A stretch of DNA of 64,000 nt from a virus. Below the pieces are notes generated by a model that did not search any database, was not told the origin of the DNA, and saw only the letters and a program-made list of their open reading frames with translations. Below, piece after piece: positions 37,256-58,782 of this stretch (positions are counted from its first letter, which is position 1; every line of letters begins with the position of its first letter). The stretch is taken from IMG/VR virus record IMGVR_UViG_3300044911_003339, positions 1 through 64,000 of that record. One strand, written 5' to 3'. The translations under genes were made by a program, and so were the position numbers.

Positions 37256-39552
37256 AGATTCGCAAGTCGATCACACAGGGGCTCAACGAGGTCGGCGGGC
37301 AGGTCTCTCAGGGCCTCAACGTCGGTGGCGCGGTCCCCGCCTCAGAACCGGCAAGCACGGGCTTCGTGCTGATCCAGGAACCGGCGCGGCACCCGAGTCG
37401 CCGGTTCCCGCACATGCAGACCGAGAGGCTTCGTCGCCTCGCGGAAGCAGGACTCGGCGAGACGCAGCGCTTCGTGCGCAGAATCTCGCAGACGGAGGAA
37501 GAGGGCACGCGCCCCGCTCCTCACGTCCTCTCGCCCGAGGACGTGACGCGACAACTGGGAGTGCCGCTCGACCTCGAACAGAAGATTCACGCCATCGTGC
37601 GTGAATCGATTCCTCCGAGCGACGGATCGAAGATCGTGGACGTGAAGCGCTTCGGCAGCGCTCGAACGCGACTCCTCGACTTCATGCGGAGACAGAAGGT
37701 CACCCTCGACTCGGACCTTCGCGCAGAGATCATGCGTCGCGCCCTTCACTACTGGCGAGCAAACTTCCGCGTCGATTACGGACGCACCCCGGAGATGCGC
37801 ATGGGCAAGGCACTGGTGATCCCCAAGCAGCGCTTCGTGCTCATGAAGGGCCCGAAGGTAGAAGCCCCTGGCGCGAGCCCGACGGGTCGAGTCTCGATGC
37901 ACCCGATGCACGTGGACGCGTCGTCGGGGAAGGTCGGCCACAAGTACATCGCGCGCAAGCCCGATGGGCATGGCGGCTGGCTCTACAAGTACCCCGGCGA
38001 CACCGAGTTCCGCCCCGGCGCGGGAATCGAAGAGGGGCACACGCAGGCCCCCGAGGGCGCGCACCTCGGCGTGCACGAGAGCGGATTCCGCCCGACGCAC
38101 GAGCGCCACGCGGACGGTGGGCACACGTTCCACTTCGGAGAGGACGTGTCCGCCCACATCCCGGCCAACGCGGACCGCGAGCACCACCGGAAGGAGCACG
38201 CGAAGCACGGGGCCGCCTACAAGAAGGCGATGGCCGAGGGCAACGAGGAGAAGGCCAAGGGGCACCTGCGCGCCTACCAGATGCACGCCGAGGCCCACAA
38301 CCGCGCCCTCTCGGCCGAGCGCAAGGCCGCGAAGACGGGCATGGCTCCGCCAGGGCACGGGCTGCCTCCTGACGTGGGCAGTCAGGTCGAGGGCAAGCCC
38401 CAGAAGCAGCCCCCCGGAGCAGGCGGTCCTGCTACGATGCCCGGTGCCCCTGGCGGCTCTCCAGGCCAGCGACCTCCTACGCAGGGCGGGATGGCCGCTG
38501 GGGGCGCTCCGATGACTCCTGGGGGCGCAGGGGAGCCCCCGCAGGGCTTCGCAGCCCGCACGCCTCCCGGAGCCGACGTGGGGCAGTACCGCCAGCATCT
38601 CCAGGCCGCGAGCGACGCGATGTCGAACCTCGCGGCGACGCATGCGCACGTCGCGGACCTCGACGCCCGCATCAAGACCGTGAAGGCGGATCGCTCGCTG
38701 CACCCGCGCATGAAGAAGCAACTCGCGGCGCAGCTACAGGCGGAGAAGGCGCAGGCGGAGCTTGACCGATTCCAGCACGAGGACGCGCACGACGCGGCCA
38801 TGGAGCAACTGAAGTCGATTCACTCCGCGCTCCGAAAGGAGAAGCTGAAGCACCACCCGATCGTGAAGATGATCGACGGGCTGCTGAAGCTCATGCAGAG
38901 CTTCGCGTCGAAGATGGGCCACGGGCCGAACCCGAAGGGCGAAGAGGGCGCGAGCCCCAACGAGCGCCAGCGGGTCGTGGACTTCTACAGCGCCCGTTCC
39001 GACGCAGCCGGCGAGGCGAAGGCCGGCGCAGGCGGCGAGGAGTTCAAGCCACGCGAGCGTACGCTCTCGCTGCGCGCTCCCACCGACACGGGCGGAGCCA
39101 AGCCCGTCGGAGAGAATCCCGCTGCGAGCCCCGCGACCCTCGCACAGAAGCGCGAGGCTCCGAAGACGGCGGCGAGCGACAGCACGTGGGACGCGGACCT
39201 CGCGAGCGCGAAGGCGAAGCGTGACGAGACCGAGCGTGCTGCGAGTCAGGCTGGCGACACGTGGCGGAATCGCCAGATCGCGCAGGGCAAGGACACGCAG
39301 GGCATGCTGCGTGAGCAGCTTCGCGCTCCCACGGAGACCTCGGAGGCCAAGACGGCAGCGCCGAAGCGCCCGACTGCGGCGGGCACGGTCGCGCCGCGGA
39401 AGCGGGCCGCGAAGTCGGCGACCGAGGCGGACCTCATCGATCTCCGCAAGGCGCTCGCGCTCGCGCACGAGGGCCTGCGTGAGACCGCGCTGACCGACAA
39501 GCGAATCGTCTTCACGCCCCCGACCGAGCGCCGCGTGCGCCTGGAGTGGTGA
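37252..39552 (+). CDS. large low-complexity putative internal head protein
   Basis: HKYIARKPDGHGGWLYKYP tag; K-[SAG] sites; His-rich and Pro/Gly-rich segments. Confidence 0.6.
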   Translation: MKIRKSITQGLNEVGGQVSQGLNVGGAVPASEPASTGFVLIQEPARHPSRRFPHMQTERLRRLAEAGLGETQRFVRRISQTEEEGTRPAPHVLSPEDVTRQLGVPLDLEQKIHAIVRESIPPSDGSKIVDVKRFGSARTRLLDFMRRQKVTLDSDLRAEIMRRALHYWRANFRVDYGRTPEMRMGKALVIPKQRFVLMKGPKVEAPGASPTGRVSMHPMHVDASSGKVGHKYIARKPDGHGGWLYKYPGDTEFRPGAGIEEGHTQAPEGAHLGVHESGFRPTHERHADGGHTFHFGEDVSAHIPANADREHHRKEHAKHGAAYKKAMAEGNEEKAKGHLRAYQMHAEAHNRALSAERKAAKTGMAPPGHGLPPDVGSQVEGKPQKQPPGAGGPATMPGAPGGSPGQRPPTQGGMAAGGAPMTPGGAGEPPQGFAARTPPGADVGQYRQHLQAASDAMSNLAATHAHVADLDARIKTVKADRSLHPRMKKQLAAQLQAEKAQAELDRFQHEDAHDAAMEQLKSIHSALRKEKLKHHPIVKMIDGLLKLMQSFASKMGHGPNPKGEEGASPNERQRVVDFYSARSDAAGEAKAGAGGEEFKPRERTLSLRAPTDTGGAKPVGENPAASPATLAQKREAPKTAASDSTWDADLASAKAKRDETERAASQAGDTWRNRQIAQGKDTQGMLREQLRAPTETSEAKTAAPKRPTAAGTVAPRKRAAKSATEADLIDLRKALALAHEGLRETALTDKRIVFTPPTERRVRLEW

Positions 39553-40262
39553 TGTCCAGCAAGGCCGAAGCCGTCGTCGTCGCGAAGGCGCTCGCGCTCA
39601 TGGGCAAGCGAGGTCGCCGAGGTCCCGTCGAGGACGAGGTGGCTCCGCGTCGCGCGAGCACGAAGCTCCATCGAGGCCGGAAGATGCCGGCCGAGCCTGC
39701 GTCTCGCTGGCCTCACAGCGCGAAGCGGCCGAAGGCCGTCGTCCAGCCCGACCTCACAGAGCCCGGTGTGCAAGGTCGCCCGCCGAAGTCGAGCGAGACG
39801 CCCGTCTACGGCAAGGGCTCGACCATCGGACCCGGACCAGGCGGCGGAGGGATTCTCGGCAAGCGGAAGGGGAAGCGCCCCTACGCACGCTCGCCGAAGT
39901 ACACGACGCTCGACATGATGGCGGCCGATCTCCACGGCAAGGTCGTCGGCCCGATGGGGTCGAAGGAGAACTCAGGCACCAGCTACGGGCCCGGCCCTGG
40001 ATGGAACTCGAACCCGATGCCGGACTTCGGCGACATGTTCCCCGGCCGAGACCCGAAGGGGTCGGAACGCGAGGAGACGAAGGCGCAAGCGAATCGCATG
40101 GTCTCGAATCGCAAGCGCAACGAGGGTACGATGGGGTTTCACGGAACCCCTCCCAAGCCGACGCTTCGGGCTGAAGCGAAGGAGCAGTTCTTCATCACCG
40201 CGACGCGCGAGAGCGAGAACAAGCCTCGCCTCTACGCGCGCGTCGGCTACAAGAGGTCGTGA
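39552..40262 (+). CDS. basic Pro/Gly-rich putative internal head protein
   Basis: Very K/R-rich, disordered; VVAKA site near N-terminus. Confidence 0.55.
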   Translation: MSSKAEAVVVAKALALMGKRGRRGPVEDEVAPRRASTKLHRGRKMPAEPASRWPHSAKRPKAVVQPDLTEPGVQGRPPKSSETPVYGKGSTIGPGPGGGGILGKRKGKRPYARSPKYTTLDMMAADLHGKVVGPMGSKENSGTSYGPGPGWNSNPMPDFGDMFPGRDPKGSEREETKAQANRMVSNRKRNEGTMGFHGTPPKPTLRAEAKEQFFITATRESENKPRLYARVGYKRS

Positions 40263-43200
40263 TGCCGCTCGGTCACAAGTACATCTCGCGCAAGCGCAAC
40301 GCTTCTGGCGGTTACGATTACGTCTACCCGCATCCCACGACGGGTGAACGCGTTCGCATCCGCACTTCCCTGCGTCTCGACGGCGAGCATCGCTCGGTCA
40401 CGGCCGAGAATCCCGAAGACCGCACGATGTCGGCGACAGCCTGGTCGCGTCGCGGGGCAGACGGCAAGACGCTGACCGAGGCTCACTCTGCGCTCGACGA
40501 GGCCGAAGCTCCGATTCATCGCGCCGCGGTCGCTGACACGATGAACCGGAAGAAGACGATCACGCGCCTCTCGCACAAGACCTCCAGCTACGGCGAGAAG
40601 CACGGCATCGGCCCTGACGACAAGGGAGGCTCTGCGGTTCGTGACGCCGCACGCAAGGCGGCGTGGGCTGCTTCCGAGCCGCCCACTGGAGGCCACACCC
40701 GCGAGACGCACGAGAAGGCCGCGAAGGCGCACGAACACGCCGCGAAGCTCGAACGCGAGGCCGGGCGACGTGATGGCTACGTGAGGCACGCTTCGATGGC
40801 CGAGCAGCATCGCAACGCGATGGAGCGGCTGGGCTCCTCAGAATCCGATTCACCAGTCTATCCGTTCTGGGTCCGCAACCAGAGGACCGGGGTCTCCGAG
40901 GGATTCAAGACGCGTGAGCAGGCCGACACGCACCTGCGGCACTACGTGAAGAATCCCGAGGACCACATCATCGAGCAGGTCGGCGCGAAGGGTCCGAAGG
41001 TCAACGTGGACCACCTGCTCTCCGGCAACATGGGAATCCCGCGCATCGAGATGCCGCAGATCCGTTCCTTCAAGCTGCCCGAGTTCCTCTCCAAGCTGGA
41101 GAAGAAGGGCATCAAGGCGACGAAGGGTGAGCGCGCAGTCGGCTCGCTGAAGCCGACGCAGAACGAGATCCACGGCGAGCGCGTCCAGGAGATCATCGAA
41201 GACCCGAAGGAGCGAGAGAATCTCGCGAAGCAGATCATCATCTCGAACGACGGCTTCATCCTCGATGGGCACCATCGCTGGGCAGCGCTCACGACGATCG
41301 ACCCGAAGGCGAAGATCAAGACGCTCCATGTGGACATGCCGATGCGCTCTCTGCTGAAGGAGGCGCACGCGTTCGAGGGTGTGGAGTACCAGAAGAGCGA
41401 ACAGGAGACGGACATGGGCGGCGACCTCATCGACAACCTCGAACTGCTCGCGAAGGGCGACACGCTCGTCGGCTTCTACTCGCCCGGTGTCGCTCGCGGC
41501 GGCAAGTACTACCGCCGAGTCCCGACCGGGAATCCGAAGCACCCGTGGAGGTACTTCTACACGGAGGCGGAGTACAAGGACGCGATGAAGGACGCTTCGC
41601 ACGTCGGCGGGACCGAGGCGAAGCGGGCGCGCGTGAAGAAGCGCGTCTTCGTGAGCGAGAAGGAGGCGCGCGAGAAGTACGGCCTTCCTGGTACGACGAA
41701 GGAGCTTCACGCGCCGGACGGGAACTACCCGCCCGAGCGGAAGAAGCTCCACGAGGAGATCATCTCGCACTTCCTCGACGGCAAGGGGAAGCCCCCCGCA
41801 GGCAAGAAGCCCGTCGCGCTGCTCACCGTCGGAGGTCCGGCCGCGGGCAAGTCCACGCTGCTGAAGCACCTCGGCGAGAACCTCGACGATTACGTGATGA
41901 TCGCCGCCGACGACGTGAAGGAGAAGCTCCCCGAGTTCCAGCGCGCGCTCAACCTCGGGAATCGCAAGGTGACGCAGCCCGACGGCTCGGTCACGAGCGT
42001 GCCAGTCACGGCGAGCCACTCGGGCTGGATGGCGCACGACGAGAGCACGGACATCTCCGACGAACTGGAGAAGCGCGTCATCGCCTCGGGCAAGTCGGCC
42101 ATCTTCGACGGCACGGGCAAGAACGTCCCGAAGATGCTCGCGAAGATCGCCGCGCTGAAGAAGGCCGGCTACCACGTGCGCGTGGTGATGCCGCACGTGC
42201 CGATGGGCGAAGCGATCAAGCGGCTGCACTCGCGCTCGGAGGACACGGGCCGCACGCTGCCCGTCGATGCGGCGATCGACATGCACCGGAAGATTCCGGG
42301 CAACTTCGAAGCCATCGCTCGCGCTGCCGACGACTTCTCGCTCTTCAAGTCGGGCAACCCGCCGAAGCCGATCTGGACGGGCGGCGCGGGTCAGGAGGAC
42401 AAGATCCACGACCACGAGGAGATGTCGAAGTTCAACCTCGCGCGAGGACTGCACCAGGACATCGGCGCAGAGGAGAAGGCGGGCGGAATCTACAAGAAGA
42501 GCGAGGACCCCGAAGCGCTCGACGCGACCGGCCCGAAGCAGCCGCACCACACCATGAACGAGTTCATGGAGATCCTCTCGCGCTGGAACGGCTCCATCGA
42601 CAACCACGAGGACGGCCGGAGCAAGGTGCCGCACGACGGCGACATCGAGGACGGCCTCGCGGACGTGATTCCCGACGCGGAGGACGAGACCGTCAAGCAC
42701 CTGAAGCGTCGTGCTCCGAAGGCCAAGAAGGCGAAGGGCGCTCGCTTCATGGAGCGAGGCGAGGTCGAGAAGAGCGGCGACCTCATCGACTCGCTGGAAG
42801 CTCTCGTGAAGGGCGGCGAGGCTGCGGGGCACAAGCTGGTGCACTCGGAGAATCCGCGTGCGCACGGAGGAGACGTGACGAAGAGCGACCGCTCGCGTCG
42901 CCTGGAGGAGAAGATCATGAGCGACGAGATGCAGAAGGGCCTCTACCAGTTCCAAGGTCTCGGCTCGGGCGAGGTCCCGGACCAGTACCTCTACGATTAC
43001 CTCTGCGCGTTCGTCGAAGAGGCGTACGAGCACGAGCGGCAGGAGAAGGTGCACCAGAACACGCTCGTGCCGCCGTCGAGCACGGGGGCGAGCATCGAGG
43101 ACGTGTGGGCGACCGCCGTCTTCAACGAACTCGTCAGCATGATGGGCTCGAACGCGAACCTGAAGCGCGCGGCGGTGAAGTACAACGTCACGAAGGACGT

Positions 43201-43624
43201 GATCGCGCACATCCTCCGCAGCAAGGGCCTCGTGCGCCCCTTCTCCGACGCCGGCACGTGGACGAGCGACTACGACTCGATGCGCGCGATGGACGGCGAG
43301 GGCGTCACGCGCCCGCTCGTGCTCTCCGAGTCGGCCCGCGCGCAGTACCGCGACATCGTGCCGGATCCGTTCGGGCACAACGTCGGAGTCGCGCTCGCGA
43401 AGGCCGAGCCCGCGCCGACCGCGCCGCTCTTCATCGACGATTCCCACGACCCGCACGGGAATCTCGCGAAGGCCGAGCGTGCTCGCCTCGCACTCGTGGA
43501 CTACCGGCAGAACGCCGAGTGGCGGCCGAACGTCTCGCCGACGTGTATGATCCACGGCAGCGCGGATCTCACGAAGTCGATGAATCTCTCGAACCCGCAC
43601 GCTCGCTGCACCTGCCCGCGCTGA
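40262..43624 (+). CDS. polyvalent protein: ParB-like domain plus zeta-toxin-like P-loop kinase plus unknown C-terminal domain
   Basis: LKPTQ...IIISNDGFILDGHHRWAA; GGPAAGKST, IAADDVKEKLP, IFDGTG. Confidence 0.85.
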   Translation: MPLGHKYISRKRNASGGYDYVYPHPTTGERVRIRTSLRLDGEHRSVTAENPEDRTMSATAWSRRGADGKTLTEAHSALDEAEAPIHRAAVADTMNRKKTITRLSHKTSSYGEKHGIGPDDKGGSAVRDAARKAAWAASEPPTGGHTRETHEKAAKAHEHAAKLEREAGRRDGYVRHASMAEQHRNAMERLGSSESDSPVYPFWVRNQRTGVSEGFKTREQADTHLRHYVKNPEDHIIEQVGAKGPKVNVDHLLSGNMGIPRIEMPQIRSFKLPEFLSKLEKKGIKATKGERAVGSLKPTQNEIHGERVQEIIEDPKERENLAKQIIISNDGFILDGHHRWAALTTIDPKAKIKTLHVDMPMRSLLKEAHAFEGVEYQKSEQETDMGGDLIDNLELLAKGDTLVGFYSPGVARGGKYYRRVPTGNPKHPWRYFYTEAEYKDAMKDASHVGGTEAKRARVKKRVFVSEKEAREKYGLPGTTKELHAPDGNYPPERKKLHEEIISHFLDGKGKPPAGKKPVALLTVGGPAAGKSTLLKHLGENLDDYVMIAADDVKEKLPEFQRALNLGNRKVTQPDGSVTSVPVTASHSGWMAHDESTDISDELEKRVIASGKSAIFDGTGKNVPKMLAKIAALKKAGYHVRVVMPHVPMGEAIKRLHSRSEDTGRTLPVDAAIDMHRKIPGNFEAIARAADDFSLFKSGNPPKPIWTGGAGQEDKIHDHEEMSKFNLARGLHQDIGAEEKAGGIYKKSEDPEALDATGPKQPHHTMNEFMEILSRWNGSIDNHEDGRSKVPHDGDIEDGLADVIPDAEDETVKHLKRRAPKAKKAKGARFMERGEVEKSGDLIDSLEALVKGGEAAGHKLVHSENPRAHGGDVTKSDRSRRLEEKIMSDEMQKGLYQFQGLGSGEVPDQYLYDYLCAFVEEAYEHERQEKVHQNTLVPPSSTGASIEDVWATAVFNELVSMMGSNANLKRAAVKYNVTKDVIAHILRSKGLVRPFSDAGTWTSDYDSMRAMDGEGVTRPLVLSESARAQYRDIVPDPFGHNVGVALAKAEPAPTAPLFIDDSHDPHGNLAKAERARLALVDYRQNAEWRPNVSPTCMIHGSADLTKSMNLSNPHARCTCPR

Positions 43625-43660
43625 ACGCGCAGGAGTCGCCCCGAGGCGTAGAGGAGACGC

Positions 43661-45460
43661 ATGGGCCTGTTCGACAAGTTCAAGGATGGATTCGAAGCGC
43701 TCGCGAAGGCGCTCGGCGAATCCGAGGAAGACGGCGAGGACATCCCCTTCGACAAGATGCGGGATGCCCTCGTGCGTTCAGGTCTCGCGGAACCGACGGA
43801 GGAGAAGCCGCGCGCGCTCTTCCACGATCCCTACGCGGTCACGGACTGGGGAGGCTGGCGAGAGCGACCGTCGTCGATGACGTACGAGACGCTTCGCATG
43901 ATGAGCGTGAAGAACACGGTCATCGCCTCCATCATCCAGATCCGGTGTAATCAGGTCGCGCAGTTCGGTCGGCCTCAGCAGGGCCCGTACGACAAGGGCT
44001 ACCGGATCATCCCGCGCGACAGGCGGGACAAGAAGAAGGTGCTCACGCCCGCGGAGAAGAAGCAGGCCGCGGAGATCGAGCGGATGCTGGAGACGACGGG
44101 CTTCCTCCTGCCCGGCGAGAAGCCCGCGGATCGCGACAGCTTCCGCACCTTCTTGCGGAAGGCCACGCGCGACATCCTCACCTACGACCAGTGGGCGTTC
44201 GAGAAGATTCGCGACCGCAAGGGTCGCGTCTCGCGCTTCATCGCGCTCCCCTCAGAGAGCATCCGGCCGGCGAGCGCGGACATCGAGCACATGGACGTGA
44301 AGTCCCTGCGCGAGCGCGTCTCGCACGTCCAGGTCTACGAGGACACGCCGATCGCCGAGTTCAGCCCCGAGGACATCGCGTGGTGCGTGATGAATCCTCG
44401 CTCCGACCTGCGCGCGAACGGCTTCGGCTTCTCGTACATCGAGATGCTCGTCTCGCTCGTGACCGCGTGGCTCTACGGGTTCGAGTACAACCAGCGATTC
44501 TTCATGCAGGGCAGCGCCATCAAGGGCATCCTGAACGTGAAGGGCGCGATTCCCGATCGTCAGCTTCGTGCGTTCCGACGCATGTGGTATTCGATGGTCT
44601 CGGGCGTGAGCAACGCGTGGAAGACGCCGATCCTCAACAGCGAGGATCTCCAGTGGGTCCCGCTCCACGTGAACAACCGCGAGATGGAGTACGGGCAGTG
44701 GATGGACTGGCTCACGAAGCTCACGTGCGCCGTGTTCGGAATCGATCCCGTCGAGATCAACTTCATCTTCGGCAACAGCGGGCAGTCGTCGTCGCTGAAC
44801 CAGTCGCGCCCGAACGCGGCGGAGGTCCAGGAGTCGAAGGACAAGGGCCTCGTGCCTCTCATGGACCACATCGCCGACAACCTGAACATGCACATCATCT
44901 GGGAACTCGCACCAGATTTCGAGTTCGCCTTCACGGGCTTCGACGCGCAGGCCGAGGAGAAGGAGCAGGAGGGTCGCATCAAGGCGGTCACGAACTACAA
45001 GATGATCGACGAGGTGCGCGCGCTCTACGAAGACGATCCGCTGCCGAACGGCATGGGCCAACTGATTCTGAATCCGACCTACATGCAGTGGGCGATGCAG
45101 AAGGAGCAGGCCGCGATGGGCGGACCTCCCGGTGGAGGTGAGGGCGACATGGGCATGGGCGATCCCGACGCGCTGCCCTCCACAGCACCGGGCAACGACG
45201 AGGAAGACCTCGCAGGGCCTCCCCAGAAGGGCCCGCCCAAGCCCGGCCAGCCCCCGAAGGGTCCGCAGGGCCCGCAACCCCCGAAGGGCGCGCAGAAGCC
45301 CCCAGGGAAGCCCTTCGGCTCCCCCGGTGAGGAAGCGCTCCAGGCGTCAGCCTTCGTCGAGCGCACGGCGCGTGGCATCCTCCGCAAGTCCCGCGTACAC
45401 ACGCGCACCGAAGGCGGGCGGGAAATCATCGACATCGAACTGCCGGAGGATCCGACATGA
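43661..45460 (+). CDS. portal protein
   Basis: NPRSD...GFSYIE...YNQRFFMQG...KGILN...EMEYGQW...FGIDPVEINF...SKDKGLVPL; SPO1/Twort-like. Confidence 0.92.
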   Translation: MGLFDKFKDGFEALAKALGESEEDGEDIPFDKMRDALVRSGLAEPTEEKPRALFHDPYAVTDWGGWRERPSSMTYETLRMMSVKNTVIASIIQIRCNQVAQFGRPQQGPYDKGYRIIPRDRRDKKKVLTPAEKKQAAEIERMLETTGFLLPGEKPADRDSFRTFLRKATRDILTYDQWAFEKIRDRKGRVSRFIALPSESIRPASADIEHMDVKSLRERVSHVQVYEDTPIAEFSPEDIAWCVMNPRSDLRANGFGFSYIEMLVSLVTAWLYGFEYNQRFFMQGSAIKGILNVKGAIPDRQLRAFRRMWYSMVSGVSNAWKTPILNSEDLQWVPLHVNNREMEYGQWMDWLTKLTCAVFGIDPVEINFIFGNSGQSSSLNQSRPNAAEVQESKDKGLVPLMDHIADNLNMHIIWELAPDFEFAFTGFDAQAEEKEQEGRIKAVTNYKMIDEVRALYEDDPLPNGMGQLILNPTYMQWAMQKEQAAMGGPPGGGEGDMGMGDPDALPSTAPGNDEEDLAGPPQKGPPKPGQPPKGPQGPQPPKGAQKPPGKPFGSPGEEALQASAFVERTARGILRKSRVHTRTEGGREIIDIELPEDPT

Positions 45461-46221: not shown

Positions 46222-46231
46222 CGGAGGTCCC

Positions 46232-48046: not shown

Positions 48047-51000
48047 TCTCGTGAAGAGCGGAGGTCCGTACATCGGGCCGAAGGGCGGTGTGTGGGCCGA
48101 CCCGCAGCACACGGTGCCGTGGAAATCGGATCATGAGGACACCACCTCTCACTTGTTCCACTCCACGCCCGCGTACGCGATGAGCCGGATCAAGCGGGAA
48201 GGTCTTGCTCCGCGCAAGGGCGCAGGTCTCTTCCAGCACGGCGGCTACGATCTGCACTCGCAAGGCAAGGTGTTCCTCTCGAACAACCTCTACGCGGCGA
48301 AGCAGTGGCACAGCAAGGTCGAGGCTCAACTCGAACACCACCACGATAATCCGAAGCACCACGTTGCAGTCATGCTTCGTGTGAAGCCTCGGGAGACGCA
48401 TCTCGACGATGTTGGAGACCGCGATGTGAGCGGCTCTCGCTTCGTGCGCGACGTTGTGCCTGCAACCGACATCGAGTTCTTCCACGAAGGTACGAAGCGC
48501 TGGAAGCCGGTGAAGGATTACAAGCACGGCACGCACGGTATCCCGGACGACCACTACGAAGCTCACGCGCCGCGCGACGAAGAGGCAGACGCCGCCGAGA
48601 AGGCCGCAGCGAAAGAGGCACGACGCGCGAAGCGCGAAGCCGAGGAGCAGGCGACTCGCGCGCGGCTCGCGGCGCTCCAGGAGGAGCGCGCGAAGCGCGA
48701 GGCTGCGGAAGCGCAGGTTCACTTCAGGGATTCTGACGAAGGCAAGGCAATCCTCACGCGCTGGAAGGGCCTCTCCCCCGAAGAGCGTCAGGCGAAGGCG
48801 AAGCGCATCCTCGACGCGCCCCGCCCTTTCCCCGGCGCTCCCTCGATGCTGTCGCTCGGGCAGCGAGGCGAGGTGTGGCGCGAAGCTCTCGGAGTCGATG
48901 AGAAAGGGAATCTCGTGAAGTCGCGATTCATCATCAAGGCAGGCCCCTCAGGTGGGGGTTGGATGCCGATCCCCGGAGGCCACCACGGAGGGCTTCGGCG
49001 ACGACACGGCGCGGGCTGGGAGTACTGGTACCCGAACGGAGCCCCGCACTTCGTGCTCCGCGAGCAGAAGCACCCCGAGGAGCAGCACGGGCACGAGCAG
49101 ATCGACCCGGAGCCCTCGCACTGGGCCCTCGTCACGCCCGGCCCCGGCCTGCCCCCGGTCGGGTGGACCGCGGGCGGCGTGAACCCGCACGACACGAAGA
49201 CCCCCGTGAAGGAGGCCGGTGTCTCGGGGAAGCTCTACCGCATCAAGAATCCGCACATCCGAGAAGGCTGGGCGCTGCTCACCGACGTGCGCTCGGGCGA
49301 GGACCACATGGTCCAGCACGACCGCGTGATGCCCGTTCGGTGGCTTTCGCCCGAAGAGAGGGCTCTCCAGGGCTCTACAGAGCCTCAGGAGCCGTTTTCG
49401 ACCTGGAAGCCAGGGGTGGGTCCCTCCAAGCGCCCGAGCGGCGGAGGGGCGTCTGAGGGCAAGCGGATGCCCTCCTTCCCCGACTCCCGAGCGCTGCCCG
49501 GAACCGAGACGCACAAGCTGGAGAACGGCGCGTACGTCTGGCGCAAGGTCACGCGGTACGAAGCCGACGAGGACGGCACCACTCGCAAGGTCGAGCGGCT
49601 CGCGCCTGGAATCCCCGACTCCGACAAGATCGCGCTCATCGCAGAGTACGAGGGCCTCGTCGCCAAGACGGCGAAGCGCGTGCGCAGCGCGTTCGGGCTC
49701 AGCGCCCGCCTCTCCACCGGCCCCGGTCAGCGCACGGTGGACGACACGCTCGTCGAGCTTCGGCAGGCCGGCGTGGAGGGTCTGCTCCACGCCATCGACA
49801 GCTATCGCCCCGTGGGCCCGTTTGCAGCGCACGCCCAGCAGTACGTTCGCGATTACGCGCGTCTCCACGCCGCACGGGAGTTCGCGGGAGGCATCGCGAT
49901 CCCGCGGCGGCATGCGCGCCTGCTCTCGTCCTACATCGCGGCCCGCGCAGAGGCCGCGCGCGTGAGCGGAAGCCACGACCCGAGCCCCGAGGTGGTCGCG
50001 GAGTTCTGGAAGCCGAAGAAGCGGGACCTGCACTCGGGCCTCTCGCCCGAGGAAGGCGGAGGAACGATTCCTCTCGCTGGCTACACGCTGAAGCGCAAGA
50101 CGACCTCGACCGATCCCGAGACGGGCAAGAAGAAGACGACCGTCGAGGGCGAGGACGTGGTGCAGCAGCCCGGCCGCCTGGAGTGGGCGCAGCAGTTCCA
50201 CGCGTTCCTCGTCGGGCAGGGAGGCATGGCGGACATCGACGAGCAGGCCGCGCTGTTCCCCGGCCTCGGCGTCGGCACGGGGCTCGGCGCGGACGAGCGC
50301 ATCGCCGTGCGCGAGGCGATGATGCGCGCGCTCCCTCCCGACGGGACGATCGTCACGGTCCAGGCGGGCCCGCAGGCCCAGTTCCGCGGCGAGACCTGGA
50401 AGGCGATCGACCTCGCCCTCGGGCTCTCGTCGGGCGATCCGCTGCCTCTCGACGAAGTGGTCCGTCGCGTGCCCGTCGAGGGATCGCGCGGAGGTGAGTG
50501 GAAGCGTCTCGGAAGCTCGCGAGCGCGCGCCGCGATCGAGGCGCTCATCCGCGACGGCCTGAACACGGTCGCGCGTCACCTGCGAGGCGACGAGGACCGA
50601 GCAGCGTCGCTCGCGCAGGCCCTCGTGACGAAGCTCGTGCCGACCGAGGCTCCGAAGGAGCGGCTCCCCACGATGCGAGAGCGAATCCGCGCTGCGATGG
50701 CCCGCATCACCCCGGCCGAGGTGCAGCGCTGGCGCGAGGAGACGCGAGCGCGCTACCCCGAGCGGCCCGACATCGGCCGACGGATGTCTCGTGTCACCGA
50801 TTCCGAAGCGAAGCGCCGCATCGTCGAGGAGCGCATCGCCGCAGCCCCGCTCACGCCCGAGATGCACGAGGCGATGCTCCGCACGATGACGGCGATTCGC
50901 CAGGGCGTCTCGGCCTCGGGCCAGAACGTCTTCGGCGTCGTGGACCCGAAGGGGTCGAAGAAGAGCCTGCGCGTGCACTCGCTCTCCAAGGCCGGCGACC

Positions 51001-51137: not shown

Positions 51138-51145
51138 GGTTCTCC

Positions 51146-51490
51146 ATGAAGAGGTTCTCCATCGACCCCGCCACGCTGCCGACCACATGGCGGGTCGGGC
51201 GGCGTGTCGGCAATAGCGGGCTGGAGCACGCCTTCGATCTCCGCCGTCGGGATGACGGCGGAATCTCCATCTCGAACGTCGAGCACCCGCTCACGGAGAC
51301 CGAGCGCACCATGCTGCTCTCGCACTTCGGCAAGGCGCGCGTCGTGACGATCGGAGGCGAGGCCGACAACGGCGCGCTCGTGACGACGATGCAGCGCCAC
51401 GAGCCGGGGGAGATCGAGAACTTCGTGGAGGCGGTCTACTCGCTGCCCTCACCCTTCATGGTGATGCCGAACGCTCGGAGGGAGACATGA
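51146..51490 (+). CDS. hypothetical protein
   Basis: GAGGT SD; coupled to the giant gene. Confidence 0.65.
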   Translation: MKRFSIDPATLPTTWRVGRRVGNSGLEHAFDLRRRDDGGISISNVEHPLTETERTMLLSHFGKARVVTIGGEADNGALVTTMQRHEPGEIENFVEAVYSLPSPFMVMPNARRET

Positions 51491-54400
51491 GCCGGTTCGT
51501 GATTCCTGCGCTCCGCGCCGCACTGCCGGACGCCCTGGCGAAGTCGTTCCAGCGAGGCCCGCTCGCGCAGCACAAGTACCTGAAGCGAGAGCCCTACTTC
51601 GTCGGGGGCAAGCTGCGCTGGAGGTACTGGTACGCGAGCGACGAGCTTCGCAAGCAGGGCATGGTCGAGCACGACCCCGCGGGCGAGCACGAGCACCACC
51701 TGCTCGCGAACATCGCGGACATCTACGAGCACTTCAAGTCCGTGATCCGCTCGACTGCTGCGACCCCGACGACGGCGATCGAGGGAATCTTCCAGGCCGC
51801 GGTCGATGACCCGAAGGCGCAGCGCGTGCCACAGGTCGCGATGTCTCCGGCGTTCCAGGCGCAGCACGTTCAGCCGTTCATCGACGCAGAGGCGAAGGGA
51901 GCACCTCCCGAGGCGAGCCCGATCGTGCGCGTGCACGACGCGCTGGAGATGGTGCCCGACTACCTCCTGAAGCTCGTGATGGGCGGGACGAAGAACACGA
52001 AGCACCCCGGCTACAAGGGGCTCGGCCCGTACCCCGGTCTCTCCGCGCTCGTGATGAATCGCCAGGAGGACGAGGGAGCGGATTACGCGAACACCGCAGG
52101 TTGGGCGCATCCGAAGACGGGCGAGCTTCACCTGCTTGGCGGCGGCTCGGGCAAGCACGGCAGCGATTCGAGCTACTCCTTCCTCGACGGCGGCGACCCT
52201 GCCACGGCTCCCACGCCGACGGACTTCAACGACGCGAAGGTGCATCTCGAAAAGGTCGTCTGGCACGAGCTTGGGCACCACGTGCACTTCACGCTGGAGA
52301 CCGAGCAGCCGGACGTGATGGATTCGTGGAGGGACCTCTCGACGGGTCCGGGTCCGAAGCCGACGGCCTACGCGCACACGGCATGGTGGGAGGACTTCGC
52401 AGAATCCTTCTCGGGCTGCTTCGCGCTCCCGAAGGTGATGGCGATGCGCTGCCCCGAGCGATACGACTGGATGCGACAGCACGTCCTGAAGTCGCTGCCC
52501 GAGAGGTCCGCGCTCCTGAAGATGTCGGACGAGGAACTCGCGTGGTGGAACAAGAAGAAGACCACGCCGCCCGGCAAGCTGCTGATGCACCTGAAGTCGA
52601 ACGCGCCCGCGCGTCGCTTCGGTGCCTACTACAGCGACAAGGACCAGTTCTTCACGGTCGGCAAGGGAGGGCGCACGGTCTACCTGCGCTTCGGTCCGTC
52701 CGAGCCTGATCAGGAGGACGGCTGGACGCAGGTCCCCTCGACCATCGACCCGGAGACCGGGCTGCCGGTCTACGACGCCGCCTACGGTCCGCGCTTCAAG
52801 GTGCAGGGCAACCTGAAGGAGATGTACGACGAGCGCGGGAATCCGCTCGACGACTTCCAGGCGTTCCTCTACCTCGGACAAGACGACCCCGAGGTGCAGA
52901 AGTTCGTCGCCGACACGATGGAGAAGTACGTCGCGACGTTGCCTCCGAACTCGCCGCAGCCGACGGAGTACGACGCGGTGCAGTGGCTCGCCGCGAAGGG
53001 CGGCGACGAGGCGAAGGCTCTGGAGACGCGTCTGCTCTCGTACAAGATGTACACGTCGCTCGGCTACAAGCGGGAGTCGGAGAAGATTTCCGCGAAGGAA
53101 GCCCACACGACGGAGAAGGAGCGCAAGCGAGTCGAGAAGGAGCGCGCGAAGGGCGGCACGGGCTACCTCGATCGCCACGACTGGGTTCCGGTCGAGATTC
53201 CTCGCTCGGAGTTCGTTCAGAAGTCGGGCACCTTCAAGTTCGACAACGTGCGACCCGCGGAGTACCAGCCGTGGCAGGCCCGCGAGTGGGATCCCGTCAC
53301 GAAGACCTCGCGTGTGAAGACCGTCTACGACCCTGCGGCCGGCAAGGTGGTGCCCGTGCGCACGGCGACGGTCTACGAGCAGGAGAACCCCGACGGCACG
53401 ACGTTCCGTGTGACGGTCGCGGAGGGCGAGCCCTTCTCGATCGGACAGACCATCCTCGCGCCGGTCAGCGTGAAGCTGCCCGACGGTCGCATCTCGCAGG
53501 ACTGGCAGCCCTACAAGCTGTCCGTCGAAGACGGCGAGATGACCGTCACGAACCTCGCGAAGAAGTTCCGCGTCGATCCTGAGGCGCTCCTTCGTCAGAA
53601 TCACCGCTACATGCGCGGGCAGATCACGGACCCGATGCTCGCCGCGCTCCTCAACCCGAGCGGCGAGGTGATTCGCGATCAGTTCGATCTCATGCGCCTC
53701 ATGAAGCTCGCGGCCGAGCAGCCCACGCCGCCGACCGCGTGGGTCAGCGTCCGGGGCAAGACGGGCTCGATCGCTCACTTCAAGGTGAGCTTCGACGGCT
53801 CGGGCCCGCCGCGCGTCGAGGGTCGTCAGTGGGCCGCGAAGCTCGGGAAGGACCCGACCGAACCCATCCGCCTCGATCAGATTCTCGGGAAGGACGACGA
53901 ACTCATCGGCGTCGAGACCGTGCGCGAGCGGAAGGCGAAGGAGGTCAAGATCAAGCCGGGCGGCCTGGTGTGGGTCACCGTCAAGAATCACCTCGGCGAC
54001 GCGAAGCGCGTGATGGCGCGCTACATCGAGAAGAAGTCGTTCGAGGAGAAGGGCAAGAAGAAGAACGCCCACGTCGTCCAGGTGCTCCCCGGTCAGGGCA
54101 CGGGTCTGCCGAAGGACCGCGTGATCGTCACGCGCGTGAACAAGAGCGACGAGAGCCAGATCCCCGGCAAGCCGGAGATTCGTCGGCGCTTCGTCGAGCC
54201 GATGCAGAAGGACGTGCTGCTCTACGCCGACGAGGTGCGGGTCGGCTCGGGCGACCGAGACACGAGCGGCGTGATCAAGATCCTCCCGCCGAAGAACGGC
54301 TCGGTCACGAAGGCGCAACTCGCTGCGATTCCTGGCGTGCGCATCATCGGACTGGAGAAGGCACGGAACAAGAAGGGCGGAGCAGTCACGGAGGAGCTTC

Positions 54401-57400
54401 CCGAGGGCGTCGAGCTTGCCATCTCGCCCCGTGACCTCCCGGCCTTCCGGGAGTACCTCGGCGGCTTCGTGATGGACGAGCGCGTCTCGTCCATGATGGA
54501 CGAGCAGGCTGCCATCATCCGAGAGCGCGCGCTCCAGGTGACCGGAGAGGACTGGCCTCCCGCAGACCAGATCGTCGATGCGGACGGCAACGTGAATCCC
54601 AACGGAGTGCTGCGCGGCATGGTGACGGGCGCGATGGGCATGCAGCCCGGCGCGCATCGCATCGAGGCGCTTCAGCGCGTCGCGATGAACAACGGTCGCC
54701 TCATCGCTGCGCACTTCATGGGCACGGGCAAGACCGCGTTCTCGATCGCAGCCGCGCAGATGATGCGGAACCTCGAATCCCGCGAGCAGCCCGGCAAGCC
54801 GCACCCGAATCAGGTGAAGAAGAAGGTGCTCGCGCTCGTGCCGCTCAACACCGCGAACAACTACGCCGACGAGGTGGAGGTGTTCACCGGAAGGCCCGCA
54901 ACGATCATCGGCTCGGGCTCGCTCGCGGGCAGCGTGCGGATGTTCCGCATGCCGAAGGACCAGGGCCAGAAGAAGAACGAGACGCGCGAGGCGTTCATCG
55001 CGCGCTCGCTCGCCGCATGGAAGGCGGCGGTCAAGACCGACCCGACGCTGTGGAACCCGTGGGCAGACGATTCCCAGATGTGCGTCTGCCCCTACGAGTA
55101 CTTCCGCGACAACGAGGAGTTGATGCGGGCCACGGAGATGTTCGACGGGCTCGTCGTGGACGAGGCGCACAACATCGCACGTGAGAACGAACTCTCACGT
55201 GCGGTCGAGCGCTGGAATCCGAACATGAACATGTTCCTCATGCTCACCGGCACGCCCGTGACGAACACGCTCGACGTGCTCCCGCGTATGGCGAGCCTCG
55301 TGAGCGCGGGCAAGGTGAACCTCGGCACGAAGCAGGAGTTCACGGAGCGCTACCTCGTCGGCTCGGCTGTCGCGAAGGGCGAGGGCGCGAAGAATCCTCC
55401 GAAGACGGACCTCAACCCGCAGCGTGCCGGCGAACTGGCGGCGATCATGCGTCCGCTCATGCACATCGCGACGACGCAGGACGTGAAGGGCAAGACGATG
55501 CCCGCGGTGCTGCTCGACGAGAACAAGCCCGCGCACATGATCGGTCAGCAGGCGCGCATGTACCGACTCTCGATGGCGAAGTTCACGCCCGAGGAGAAGG
55601 CGGCGATCATCGAGAGCGGTGCGGTCGGCACCGACGAGTCGTACGCGCTCGATGACGAGGGTCGCCGCAAGATCGGTGTCGCTCGCTCGATCGCGAACTG
55701 CCTCGCCTACAAGGCACCCGACCAGCGTGAGAATCTCACGTACGAGTCGAAGAGCACCGAGGAGAAGAAGGGCAAGGTCATCGAGAAGACCGTCACCCGC
55801 GTCTTCTCGCTGCCCACGCACGCGATGATGACGACGAAGCGCCCCGAGGGCTGGGGCGGGAAGTGGCCGACGTTCTCGGAGGTCGAGAAGGGAATCGTCG
55901 AGCCGGGCTACTACAACGTGCTCTCGGAGTACTACGAGCGCCTCTTCGGCGTGACGTACGACTCCGTGGAGGGCAAGCCCATCGCGAAGGAGATCCTGGA
56001 CGGCGTGAAGCGCGGCGACTACGTGACGCCGAGCGGCGCGCCGTGGGGTACGGTCGTGAATCCCGATTACGGCCCAGAGGGCATGATCTGTCGCGGCACG
56101 CTCGACCCGGTGACGGGCAAGATCGAGCCGCTGCGGAAGGAGATCGTCGAGAACGGGCAGAAGCGCGTCGTCGAGGTCAAGCCGGGCACGCGCTTCATCC
56201 GCGATCCGAACTCCAAGGCGGCGGGCCTCTTCTACCACGAGGATGACTGGAACTTCACCGGCCGCTTCATCGACTCGGGCGAGGGAGGCGGCGGCGAGGG
56301 TGGAGGCGAGGACGATCCGTCCGACCCGAAGCCCGCGTCTGCCGGCAAGCAGGCCCCGAAGGACCCCTCGCTCTCCATCCAGCGTTCGACGAAGCGCCGG
56401 AAGGAGCGAGAGATGTTCGACCTCGCGGTCACGGCGGGCAACGCGAAGAGCGACGAACTGGAGCAGTACATCCACAACGCGCTTCGCGACGACAACCTCG
56501 GGCCCGATCAGCAGTTCATCCTCTTCGGGAATCGCATCGGCTCTTCCTTCCGCACGATGGAGAGCAAGCTCCGCACGATGGGATTCCAGGACGTGAACGA
56601 AGCGCTCGGGCACCCCGAGTGGAGCACGGCCGAGGACAAGGCGATGATGCCTCGGAAGTTCTTCGTGACGTACGCGGGCAAGGGAGCAACGCTCGGCGAC
56701 CGCGACATCAACTCGGAAATCTTCCGACAGAAGCTCGACCAGTTCGGCCACAAGACCGGGCAGTCGATGTTCGTCTTCCGCACGCTCAACGGCGGCACGA
56801 AGAAGCCACCCAAGGTCGGCGAGATGCGCGAGGGCTGGAGCCGTGGCCAGCGGAAGCGCATCGCCGACGCTCTCGCGGAGCCCACGCGCAAGACGGCCGA
56901 GGGCAAGCCTGCGGGCCTGGAGGTGCCGATGCGCGTGACGAGCGTCGAGGTCGATGGTCGCATCGAGCAGCGGTACCTCTACGAGTCGGACATGAAGCCG
57001 AAGGATCGCGCAGAGTTCCTCCGGCTGGAGAAGGAGCGCCGCGGCGCGGACAAGGCGCGCAAGCAGGCGATCGACGGCGAGATGCGCGCGCTCGCCGACC
57101 GCTACTGGAGCGACCGGATTCCTCTGTCCGATCACTACCAGTACGTGCTGAACAACACGCAGATCATGGTGGCGACCGACGCCGCGAACGTCGGCCTCAA
57201 CTGGCCTGCTCCCAAGCTCGTCATGTACGACTCGCTCTTCTCGCCGATGGACGAGTGGCAGCGCATGACGCGTGCGGCCCGCATGCTCGACGCAGCGGTC
57301 ACCGGACCCGCGAAGAAGTACGTCGAGAAGATCGACGCGAAGCTCTCCGAGATGGAGAAGCAGACCGGGCTGAAGGAGTACGGACCAGAATCTTCCCTTC

Positions 57401-58122
57401 AGGCGGTGCAGGACGCGATCGAGTCGCTCCCCGAGGACGAGCGCGCCGAGCTTCTGAACCTGGAGGGAGGAGGCCCCGATCAGATCGTCGAGGCCATCTT
57501 CAGCCGTCGCGCCATGGACAAGATCGCGAAGCTCCGCCCCGAGGTCGGCGCGCATCTCCGGCAGGCCGGCGCTGCGCCTGATCCCGATCGCCCCGAGATC
57601 CGCATCCGTCCATCGGCCATCCAGGAATCCGACGTGACGAACGAGATCATCCGCAAGCACCTCACGCCCTTCGAGCAGCGCGTGCTCCGAGGACGCATGT
57701 ACCTCGTGGACGTGAAGCGGCTCACGACCTCGTGCGACGTGCCCGAGATGAAGTCGATTCGCATCGAAGACCCGATGACGGGCAAGAAGACCACGGTTCA
57801 GGTCCCGACCGGCAAGTGGTCGGTCGAGGCTCCGACGCAGGCCGAGCGAAGCCAACTCACGCAGGGCCGCATGAAGATGGTGCCCTACGAGAAGGCGATG
57901 AAGGCGTTCCAGAACGCGCAGCCGGTGAAGACCGACTACGACTTCCTCGTGACGCCTCGCGGGAGCGTGCGTAGCTTCTCGATCATGCCTGAGGAGATCG
58001 AGCGCGAGAAGGCGAGTCGCGCGAAGCGCGAGGTCGCGAAGCCGAAGCCCACGAAGACGAAGAAGTCGGAGAGCTACAGCCGATTCTTCATTCCAGCGCG
58101 AACCGCGCGCGGGGAGGCGTGA
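51487..58122 (+). CDS. 2211-aa polyvalent protein: HEXXH metallopeptidase plus SNF2/DarB-like helicase
   Basis: WHELGH...TAYA...EDFAESF; AHFMGTGKT, LVVDEAH, LTGTP, ATDAANVGLN, QRMTRAAR. Confidence 0.88.
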   Translation: MSRFVIPALRAALPDALAKSFQRGPLAQHKYLKREPYFVGGKLRWRYWYASDELRKQGMVEHDPAGEHEHHLLANIADIYEHFKSVIRSTAATPTTAIEGIFQAAVDDPKAQRVPQVAMSPAFQAQHVQPFIDAEAKGAPPEASPIVRVHDALEMVPDYLLKLVMGGTKNTKHPGYKGLGPYPGLSALVMNRQEDEGADYANTAGWAHPKTGELHLLGGGSGKHGSDSSYSFLDGGDPATAPTPTDFNDAKVHLEKVVWHELGHHVHFTLETEQPDVMDSWRDLSTGPGPKPTAYAHTAWWEDFAESFSGCFALPKVMAMRCPERYDWMRQHVLKSLPERSALLKMSDEELAWWNKKKTTPPGKLLMHLKSNAPARRFGAYYSDKDQFFTVGKGGRTVYLRFGPSEPDQEDGWTQVPSTIDPETGLPVYDAAYGPRFKVQGNLKEMYDERGNPLDDFQAFLYLGQDDPEVQKFVADTMEKYVATLPPNSPQPTEYDAVQWLAAKGGDEAKALETRLLSYKMYTSLGYKRESEKISAKEAHTTEKERKRVEKERAKGGTGYLDRHDWVPVEIPRSEFVQKSGTFKFDNVRPAEYQPWQAREWDPVTKTSRVKTVYDPAAGKVVPVRTATVYEQENPDGTTFRVTVAEGEPFSIGQTILAPVSVKLPDGRISQDWQPYKLSVEDGEMTVTNLAKKFRVDPEALLRQNHRYMRGQITDPMLAALLNPSGEVIRDQFDLMRLMKLAAEQPTPPTAWVSVRGKTGSIAHFKVSFDGSGPPRVEGRQWAAKLGKDPTEPIRLDQILGKDDELIGVETVRERKAKEVKIKPGGLVWVTVKNHLGDAKRVMARYIEKKSFEEKGKKKNAHVVQVLPGQGTGLPKDRVIVTRVNKSDESQIPGKPEIRRRFVEPMQKDVLLYADEVRVGSGDRDTSGVIKILPPKNGSVTKAQLAAIPGVRIIGLEKARNKKGGAVTEELPEGVELAISPRDLPAFREYLGGFVMDERVSSMMDEQAAIIRERALQVTGEDWPPADQIVDADGNVNPNGVLRGMVTGAMGMQPGAHRIEALQRVAMNNGRLIAAHFMGTGKTAFSIAAAQMMRNLESREQPGKPHPNQVKKKVLALVPLNTANNYADEVEVFTGRPATIIGSGSLAGSVRMFRMPKDQGQKKNETREAFIARSLAAWKAAVKTDPTLWNPWADDSQMCVCPYEYFRDNEELMRATEMFDGLVVDEAHNIARENELSRAVERWNPNMNMFLMLTGTPVTNTLDVLPRMASLVSAGKVNLGTKQEFTERYLVGSAVAKGEGAKNPPKTDLNPQRAGELAAIMRPLMHIATTQDVKGKTMPAVLLDENKPAHMIGQQARMYRLSMAKFTPEEKAAIIESGAVGTDESYALDDEGRRKIGVARSIANCLAYKAPDQRENLTYESKSTEEKKGKVIEKTVTRVFSLPTHAMMTTKRPEGWGGKWPTFSEVEKGIVEPGYYNVLSEYYERLFGVTYDSVEGKPIAKEILDGVKRGDYVTPSGAPWGTVVNPDYGPEGMICRGTLDPVTGKIEPLRKEIVENGQKRVVEVKPGTRFIRDPNSKAAGLFYHEDDWNFTGRFIDSGEGGGGEGGGEDDPSDPKPASAGKQAPKDPSLSIQRSTKRRKEREMFDLAVTAGNAKSDELEQYIHNALRDDNLGPDQQFILFGNRIGSSFRTMESKLRTMGFQDVNEALGHPEWSTAEDKAMMPRKFFVTYAGKGATLGDRDINSEIFRQKLDQFGHKTGQSMFVFRTLNGGTKKPPKVGEMREGWSRGQRKRIADALAEPTRKTAEGKPAGLEVPMRVTSVEVDGRIEQRYLYESDMKPKDRAEFLRLEKERRGADKARKQAIDGEMRALADRYWSDRIPLSDHYQYVLNNTQIMVATDAANVGLNWPAPKLVMYDSLFSPMDEWQRMTRAARMLDAAVTGPAKKYVEKIDAKLSEMEKQTGLKEYGPESSLQAVQDAIESLPEDERAELLNLEGGGPDQIVEAIFSRRAMDKIAKLRPEVGAHLRQAGAAPDPDRPEIRIRPSAIQESDVTNEIIRKHLTPFEQRVLRGRMYLVDVKRLTTSCDVPEMKSIRIEDPMTGKKTTVQVPTGKWSVEAPTQAERSQLTQGRMKMVPYEKAMKAFQNAQPVKTDYDFLVTPRGSVRSFSIMPEEIEREKASRAKREVAKPKPTKTKKSESYSRFFIPARTARGEA

Positions 58123-58123
58123 G

Positions 58124-58429
58124 ATGCCGTTGCTCGGGAAGCAGATCGACCCCATCTCGATGTTCCAGGGAGGCCCCTTCGGCGGGGCCCCTCAGGGCGC
58201 GATCGACCTGGAGGCGTTCGAGAAGATCACCAGCGCGGACCTCGCCTTCAAGCGGCTGAACTGGCTCCGCAACTACGACGTGGTGCTGCGCGGCTTTCAC
58301 GCGCCGTCCGACATGCAGCGCATGTGGCGCGCGGTCTTCCGCTCCTCACTCGCCTACGGCTCGCCCATCCCAACCGACATGATTCCGTACGCACGCGCGC
58401 TCGGCGTCGTGATCCCGTCGAGTTCGTGA
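58124..58429 (+). CDS. hypothetical protein
   Basis: GGAGG SD. Confidence 0.65.
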   Translation: MPLLGKQIDPISMFQGGPFGGAPQGAIDLEAFEKITSADLAFKRLNWLRNYDVVLRGFHAPSDMQRMWRAVFRSSLAYGSPIPTDMIPYARALGVVIPSSS

Positions 58430-58656: not shown

Positions 58657-58716
58657 CGCTGCTGCCGGATTCGTGACACACCATGGACCGTGGCCTGCTC
58701 CCGTGTGGAGCACGAG

Positions 58717-58752: not shown

Positions 58753-58782
58753 CGTTCTCGGGTCGCAGATCGCGCGGACGCG

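Follow-up and report, generated by a model that had tools for sequence, protein, structure and literature searches.

The window analysed here covers 64 kb at the start of a viral record of 105,161 bp (IMG/VR IMGVR_UViG_3300044911_003339; G+C 67%), and it contains a block of head genes whose products carry two kinds of short peptide motif, DLID and SRF-x-IPA, next to lysine-serine (K-S) sites. The genes of this block are all on the plus strand, with genes for giant cargo proteins sitting between those for the terminase (31139-32872) and the capsid. In order, they encode a 766-amino-acid (aa) protein (37252-39552), a 238-aa protein, an 1121-aa protein with a ParB-like domain and a Zeta-toxin kinase domain (40259-43624), the portal (43661-45460), a 254-aa protein, a 604-aa protein with the C-terminal zincin motif H-E-F-G-H (46232-48046), a 1037-aa protein (N-terminus from 48024), a 2211-aa protein with an H-E-x-x-H domain and an SNF2 helicase (51487-58122), a 101-aa protein, a 75-aa zinc-ribbon open reading frame (ORF; 58429-58656) just upstream of the protease gene, the prohead protease (58690-59538), a scaffold-like protein (59554-60588), and the major capsid protein (60659-62083). 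The protease matches phrog_1028, "head maturation protease", at 4e-50, while its match to the Pfam S78 model (PF04586; E 0.011, 16.3 bits) is under the cut-off of 21, and both the protease and the capsid protein are 35-43% identical to their counterparts in SPO1-like phages. The combination of a Zeta and a ParB-like domain in one chain and of an SNF2 helicase and an H-E-x-x-H domain in another, among virion genes, places these cargo proteins with the polyvalent proteins. As described below, each motif is the local representative of a widespread class of short, flexible end-piece carried by capsid cargo proteins.

Motif sites in the head gene block

An earlier note on this DNA had listed the DLID and SRF-x-IPA motifs and had read them as disposable propeptides, and all of its motifs were found where it had placed them, at frequencies well beyond chance. 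DLID occurs three times in the 8031 residues of the head module against 0.08 expected, and all three copies lie 1-8 residues downstream of K-S; for K-S with DLID within 8 residues, the three occurrences compare with an expectation of 0.002, a count reached in none of 5000 shuffles. Two of the copies lie at junctions of the 1121-aa protein. Junction 1 (41387-41461), which runs from K-S through a spacer and the DLID helix to L-A-K-G and is followed by a hairpin tag of the form H-K-Y-x-x-R ... W-x-Y-x-Y (HKY tag; 41501-41560), separates the ParB-like domain (phrog_2859, 4e-30, residues 254-385) from the Zeta domain (5e-20, residues 509-690). Junction 2 (42743-42817), made up of E-K-S-G, the same helix, L-V-K-G, and then a truncated tag, separates the Zeta domain from the C-terminal domain. 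The third copy is a short helix between K-S and R-K-A in the tail of the 766-aa protein (39406-39453). The DNA 15-mer that the earlier note reported at two of the DLID sites does exist, but it adds little by itself because it uses the commonest codon at every position (frequencies 0.63-0.91), and a recent duplication as its source was rejected for the same reason. The two DLID cassettes are identical at 31 of 39 bases.

The other motif, SRF-x-IPA, does stand on both ends of the 2211-aa protein, as had been claimed, with M-S-R-F-V-I-P-A at the start and S-R-F-F-I-P-A-R at the end. The N-terminal leader (51487-51549) consists of the strand, a short helix, and L-A-K-S, with an HKY hairpin following at 51571-51633, and the C-terminal trailer (58060-58119) consists of K-K-S, four residues, the strand, and six residues before the stop codon. 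Similar strands are found inside two other cargo proteins, namely V-I-P-K-Q-R-F-V-L-M-K-G in the 766-aa protein (37807-37851, with Q-R-F-V-L-M-K-G at 37828-37851), after which there is an HKY tag at 37936-37992, and V-K-S-R-F-I-I-K-A in the 1037-aa protein (48912-48941, with K-S-R-F-I-I-K-A at 48918-48941), next to a degenerate tag. The K-S-D-Q-P-R-L-V-V of the earlier note belongs to the tail with which the small zinc-ribbon ORF ends, R-K-S-D-Q-P-R-L-V-V-R-R-T (58615-58653). The portal ends in a comparable tail, L-R-K-S followed by the strand I-I-D-I-E-L, in which hydrophobic and acidic residues alternate (45380-45457). The 766-aa protein also has a hydrophobic strand near its C-terminus, R-I-V-F-T-P-P (39499-39549), which ends 10 residues before the stop codon and is similar to the trailers of the 2211-aa family, with conservation that is visible only in the near-identical locus L002.

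The 1037-aa protein begins with a 12-residue leader ending in D-L-V-K-S (48024-48059), which precedes a second type of tag containing G-P-Y-I-G-P-K-G-G. Read with its 11 residues before K|S as the leader, this start continues as G-G-P-Y-I-G-P-K-G-G-x-W ... H-T-x-P-W (48024-48130), and this tag is also present in the related loci L005 and L007 and at the start of the homolog P0170. The start of the 1037-aa protein looks like a second tag type within the same system.

Two classes of leader, C-terminal trailers and the hairpin tag

Comparison with related sequences places the DLID helix, as a local version, in a widespread class of leaders with the consensus (K-S)-M-D-A-I-D-A-L-x-x-L-x-K-[GA], which are predicted to be amphipathic helices (class A). 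Loci found through their portal (59-99% identity) repeat the layout of the window, with K-S, D-x-[IL]-D-x-L-x-x-L-x-K-[GSA], a few residues, and then H-K-Y-x-x-R ... W-x-Y-x-Y. With a hidden Markov model (HMM) built solely from class-A leaders outside the window, the two sites of the 1121-aa protein ranked first and second in the proteome of the whole 105-kb genome; they scored 15.0 and 8.5 bits, whereas no reversed decoy scored higher than 4.4. The shorter DLID copy of the 766-aa protein is not captured by this fixed-length profile; short leader variants like it are present in other proteins. The internal class-A leaders have [KR]-[SA] within four residues upstream in 20 of 40 cases (background 8.8%), and the same helix begins at Met1 in many proteins, 15 of which were counted. 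The earlier description of the motif as DLID after K|S therefore needs correcting, since an upstream K-S is a feature of internal junctions only, and the helix lies between this K-S and the downstream L-x-K-[GA], directly before the HKY hairpin. A derivation of the class-A leader from a scaffold segment (D-A-I-D-V-S ... L-A-K-G) was considered, but the matches of the scaffold to the class-A profile are at decoy level, and the idea stays speculation.

On comparative grounds, SRF-x-IPA likewise represents a second type of leader, (K-[SA])-x-F-V-I-P-x-x-L-x-K-[AG], with a hydrophobic strand and an optional Met after K-[SA] (class B), and the N-terminus of the 2211-aa protein belongs to this type. 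Among internal class-B leaders, [KR]-[SA] lies within seven residues upstream in 9 of 18 (background 17%), and five proteins have the leader starting at Met1. For the 2211-aa protein we compiled 57 homologs with 26-98% identity, and 46 of them keep the N-terminal strand together with L-x-K-[SA], compared with a background of 0.4%; K19 is invariant in the family, and the strand lies 13-17 residues from the lysine. A possible mimicry of the capsid-protein N-terminus (F-V-S-A ... L-x-K-A) by the class-B leader was set aside, as hhalign aligned only the six L-x-K-A columns (P 0.037).

Leaders of both classes are placed 3-9 residues before the HKY hairpin, either at Met1 or inside polyproteins after K-S, and they appear to be interchangeable ahead of homologous modules. 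The junction between the ParB-like and Zeta domains, for instance, carries class A in the window and a class-B-like leader in L008 and P0009. The earlier note's reading depended on the motifs being conserved in homologs, and both classes do recur, in relatives of this phage as well as in unrelated metagenomic cargo proteins.

The C-terminal trailers are also widespread. In the 2211-aa family, K-[SAG] followed by a hydrophobic strand is present at the C-terminus of 43 of the 57 homologs by a strict regular expression and of about 53 by eye (background 4.3%), with 7-29 residues from the lysine to the stop codon. The trailer is kept despite the poor conservation of the linker that precedes it and, in one homolog, despite an additional domain inserted ahead of it. 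Because three homologs retain the leader and have no trailer, the two ends of the protein appear to be independent. In each of the 11 relatives that we examined, with portal identities as low as 35%, the portal tail has L-x-K-[SA] and then a strand in which hydrophobic and acidic residues alternate, and the zinc-ribbon protein has a tail of the K-[SA]-x-x-P-R-L type in most copies. Similar C-terminal tails occur on MuF-like proteins of distant relatives and on three unrelated giant cargo proteins.

The hairpin after the leaders is a constant part of this layout. At module starts we found a cassette of K-[SAG], 2-10 residues, and then the HKY tag, which is covered by no Pfam model; the window has four intact and two degenerate copies of the tag. 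A profile of the junction unit detected 257 protein clusters in a set of 1.84 billion representatives, with proteins that in many cases carry 2-5 copies of the unit, and K-[GSA] lies 2-10 residues ahead of nearly all of the 268 tags.

The module borders marked by these cassettes also differ between close relatives. Compared with its 96-99% identical ortholog in L002, the 1121-aa protein of the window shows module-sized insertions and deletions at cassette borders (window 42815-43000; L002:8231-9400). At junction 2, the tag is intact in L002 and comes with two additional modules (about 181 and 130 residues), both headed by an HKY hairpin; the window protein is missing these modules and is left with a truncated tag (G-H-K, then L-V-H-S), and, conversely, about 79 residues near the N-terminus are absent from the L002 ortholog. 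These indels, like the 31 bases common to the two DLID cassettes, could suggest that the junction repeats matter mainly as DNA, as recombination linkers for the swapping, gain and loss of modules. We consider this most improbable, as it is the amino acids rather than the DNA that are conserved across divergent phages, codon bias explains the 15-mer, the break points between the window and L002 do not correspond to a simple crossover between two cassettes, and the motifs at protein termini are not junctions at all.

Several side observations concern the cargo and neighbouring proteins. Precomputed Pfam matches to the intein model PF14890 are present in several 2211-aa homologs (P0165, P0166, P0202, P0205, and P0206), some of which also match the HNH endonuclease model PF13392, and mobile inteins appear to be inserted in the helicase region of some members of the family. 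The 604-aa protein has, besides its C-terminal H-E-F-G-H, a C-P-D-C ... H-P-W-C-G-C region that looks MuF-like (Pfam gave no match), and related loci, even those with only 23-28% identity, encode a homolog at the corresponding position. The 75-aa ORF, which has two C-x-x-C pairs, is kept in at least 12 related loci and has no Pfam match, and its product may be a partner, a regulator or a substrate of the protease.

Lysine sites, predicted structures and the proposed role of the end-pieces

The lysine sites that bracket the leaders and trailers are of the same type as conserved sites in three other head proteins, the protease, the scaffold and the capsid protein. In the head-module proteins we counted 67 copies of hydrophobic-x-K-[SGA] against 41.4 expected (z 4.4), and in the rest of the genome there is no enrichment (50 observed, 57.7 expected, z -1.1). 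Within the protease, V-L-A-K-S-L (59272-59301) is invariant or nearly so after the catalytic domain in 11 related proteases, x-K-S-E-A (59422-59451) stands before the last 33 residues and is conserved in relatives as K-[SG]-[EA]-A, and F-E-K-A near the N-terminus (58828-58857) is conserved as [FM]-E-K-[AS]. In the scaffold-like protein, five to six sites of the form hydrophobic-x-K-[SAG] are conserved, one of them being K-K-S-E, which stands 63 residues before its end, and the site E-I-A-x-L-x-K-A-L near the N-terminus of the capsid protein (60719-60757) is conserved in 13 relatives. K-K-S or N-K-S is found 17-63 residues from the C-terminus of the protease, the scaffold, and the 1037-aa and 2211-aa proteins. 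HK97 gp5 is cut at Lys|Ser.

These sites bring up the first alternative, which is that the peptides are extended recognition or presentation elements, on the P and P' sides, for the prohead protease only, with targeting left to the HKY hairpin or to other parts of the proteins. The peptides could equally be extended protease-recognition elements. In favour of this reading, K-S followed by M/L-D-A-[IFL] is present both in class-A leaders and at one conserved site of the scaffold, K-S-E-A-[VI]-x-x-L-L opens the C-terminal piece of the protease itself, and several R-F-hydrophobic strands end directly in K-[GA], as residues on the P side would. Recognition as their only role is nevertheless unlikely in our estimation, since leaders at Met1 (15 of class A and 5 of class B) and trailers of 7-29 residues would be of no use if separating modules were the only aim, two chemically unlike classes fill the same position, and the N-terminal strand of the 2211-aa protein, at 13-17 residues from its lysine, lies beyond the immediate cut site.

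To look at the two ends of the 2211-aa protein in three dimensions, we modelled its first and last 420 residues with AlphaFold2 using alignments of about 40 homologs. The N-terminal model has a mean predicted local distance difference test (pLDDT) score of 81.9, but residues 1-27 are below 50 and the leader is undocked; the HKY hairpin, in contrast, is part of the domain fold (strands 33-39 and 42-49, pLDDT 81-88). In the C-terminal model the last 23 residues or so have a pLDDT of 43-49. As the ends are of low confidence and unpacked, the motifs of the 2211-aa protein are expected to behave as conserved linear motifs in flexible tails. This makes it very unlikely, in our view, that the motifs are retained structural parts that pack on the hairpin, pair the two terminal strands of the 2211-aa protein, or mediate oligomerisation, even though they adjoin the hairpin and similar strands are present at both termini of this protein. 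The models leave the leader and trailer unpacked beside a confidently folded hairpin, a helix and a strand substitute for each other at the same position, and some homologs have lost the trailer and kept the leader. Pairing of the terminal strands in particular is unlikely given the homologs with an N-terminal strand only.

The N-terminal domain of the 2211-aa protein gives rise to another alternative, in which the F-V-I-P strand is a substrate or pseudo-substrate of the zincin domains of the cargo (at the N-terminus of the 2211-aa protein and the C-terminus of the 604-aa protein), leading to self-trimming or keeping the enzymes inactive until they are packaged. The H-E-x-x-H domain directly follows the leader, and the model of this domain (51487-52746) gave weak, non-significant Foldseek matches (E about 0.01) to gluzincin peptidases of the lethal-factor and Pro-Pro-endopeptidase type, in agreement with the H-E-x-x-H motif. 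As far as the accessible text of the study goes, processing of polyvalent proteins mainly by their own zincin domains was proposed by Iyer, Burroughs, Anand, de Souza and Aravind in 2017 (PMC5512222). We judge this alternative to be quite unlikely, however, as the leader is undocked in the model with pLDDT below 50, class-B leaders are also present on cargo without a zincin domain, the trailers of the portal and the zinc-ribbon protein lack the proline pattern, and the conserved feature is K-[SA] beside the strand, which is the site type common to the protease, scaffold and capsid protein.

We believe that there is about an even chance that DLID and SRF-x-IPA are removable docking or presentation peptides that are cut off by an HK97-type head protease. 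They probably help to load the giant enzymes into the capsid or mark the points at which the protease cuts. Part of the earlier note's disposable-propeptide reading fits the comparisons and models, in that the peptides are short, unpacked in the AlphaFold2 models, bracketed by K-[S/A/G], and seemingly interchangeable between classes; what it did not get right is the geometry of the DLID sites. In the mechanism that we propose, the exposed peptides would attach the cargo, before it is cut, to some part of the prohead during assembly, present the neighbouring site to the protease, or do both. The HK97-type prohead protease would then cut after the lysine in hydrophobic-x-K|[S/A/G], removing leaders and trailers of 12-29 residues and splitting the polyproteins into modules. 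The mature modules, starting a few residues before the hairpin, would remain in the head and be ejected together with the DNA. Leaders at Met1 and trailers at the extreme C-terminus would be pointless for module separation alone, and the most economical reading is therefore that the peptides act while they are still attached, by docking to the prohead or by presenting the site. It is also conceivable, although we find it doubtful, that the peptides make up a two-ended code in which helix and strand peptides at N-termini, junctions and C-termini all bind one common site on the prohead and are all then removed at Lys-[Ser/Ala/Gly] by the head protease. Candidates for such a common site are the portal, which is similarly tailed, and the scaffold.

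Several results weigh against the docking or presentation role. An upstream K-S is present at only about half of the internal leaders, and a scan of the genome with a class-B profile gave scores at noise level that did not discriminate; this motif is too short for a profile, and membership in class B therefore rests on position and on conservation in the 46 homologs. Comparisons aimed at a receptor for the peptides, of class A with the scaffold and of class B with the capsid-protein N-terminus, were at noise level except for the shared L-x-K-A. At the C-terminus of the 1121-aa protein (43540-43624), K-S lies within a cluster C-x-x-H ... K-[SA]-M-N-L-x-N-P ... C-x-C that is kept in seven relatives and is probably a structural zinc knuckle rather than a cut site, so that the idea of every K-S being a cut site was rejected. 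All of the relatives are metagenomic, and we found no usable cut-site data in the literature for the SPO1/Twort/A511-type protease clade.

Relation to known systems and significance

In herpesviruses, assemblin cuts the scaffold at its M-site and thereby removes the C-terminal tail by which an internal protein is held to the shell. As in that system, a C-terminal tail would be cut here by a maturation protease of related fold, at K-K-S or N-K-S near the ends of the proteins; unlike in that system, where the site is Ala|Ser in another virus lineage, binding of the tail to the shell is only putative.

The closest parallel for the leaders is the capsid-targeting sequence (CTS) of phage T4, an N-terminal peptide of 10-20 residues (PMC5694885) that is carried by the internal proteins IPI-III and Alt and removed by the prohead protease gp21 (Mullaney and Black 1996; reviewed in PMC5694885 and PMC9026906). 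Both systems have a short N-terminal peptide on a protein carried in the head (19 residues before K|S in the 2211-aa protein and 11 in the 1037-aa protein), and a lysine or glutamate site follows the peptide. In T4 this site is of a kind at which the protease also cuts structural head proteins, and here it is a candidate site of a kind that the protease, scaffold and capsid protein share. The leaders described here have no sequence similarity to the T4 CTS, and they differ from it in being likely cut after lysine (hydrophobic-x-K|[S/A/G]) instead of glutamate (L/I-x-E) and by a protease of HK97/SPO1 type instead of gp21 type. They also come in two classes, with copies at internal positions of polyproteins and with a hairpin that always follows the site, and they have counterparts at C-termini in the trailers. 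While targeting has been shown in T4, here it is proposed from sequence comparison. The protease of phage SPN3US removes its own C-terminus (PMC5694885).

Another parallel is DarB of phage P1, whose first 30 residues suffice to package a reporter in the capsid (PMC9024508). Like the 2211-aa protein, DarB is giant (about 250 kDa), contains a helicase, and is encoded among head genes, and the conserved, predicted-disordered N-terminal leader of the 2211-aa protein spans 19-27 residues. Unlike for the leaders here, no protease sites are known to flank the DarB signal, and no C-terminal counterpart has been described for it. The logic of the leaders and trailers would match that of the T4 CTS and the P1 DarB signal, with differences in chemistry (lysine), protease type, and architecture. 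A tblastn search with the 2211-aa protein in 50,697 GenBank phage records, a collection that we expected, but did not check, to include P1, found no homolog, and a search of the same records with a five-tag protein found no cassette; ten representative proteins are all metagenomic.

The cargo proteins of the window also resemble the polyvalent proteins (PMC5512222) in that they are multi-enzyme chains (ParB-like with Zeta, zincin with SNF2), in that their genes neighbour those for the portal and other head proteins, and in that both packaging and processing are expected of them. The junction leaders, lysine sites, and HKY hairpin are not mentioned in the accessible portion of that paper. Neither a cultured relative nor a published description came to light; the two classes of leader, the C-terminal trailers, and the predictions of disorder are new here.

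If the docking or presentation role is correct, a leader or trailer together with its lysine site would set which enzymes enter the capsid and where the giant polyproteins are cut, as a modular code across a large group of uncultured phages with SPO1-like heads. The mature cargo proteins, which are candidate injected counter-defence enzymes, would then be predictable from sequence alone, and the gain and loss of modules between near-identical phages would be explained. The capsid-targeting idea developed for T4 and P1 would also extend to another type of protease and to C-terminal signals. Should the two-ended code with a common prohead site hold as well, it would be the first C-terminal capsid-targeting signal and a portable code for loading enzymes into the heads of this group of phages.

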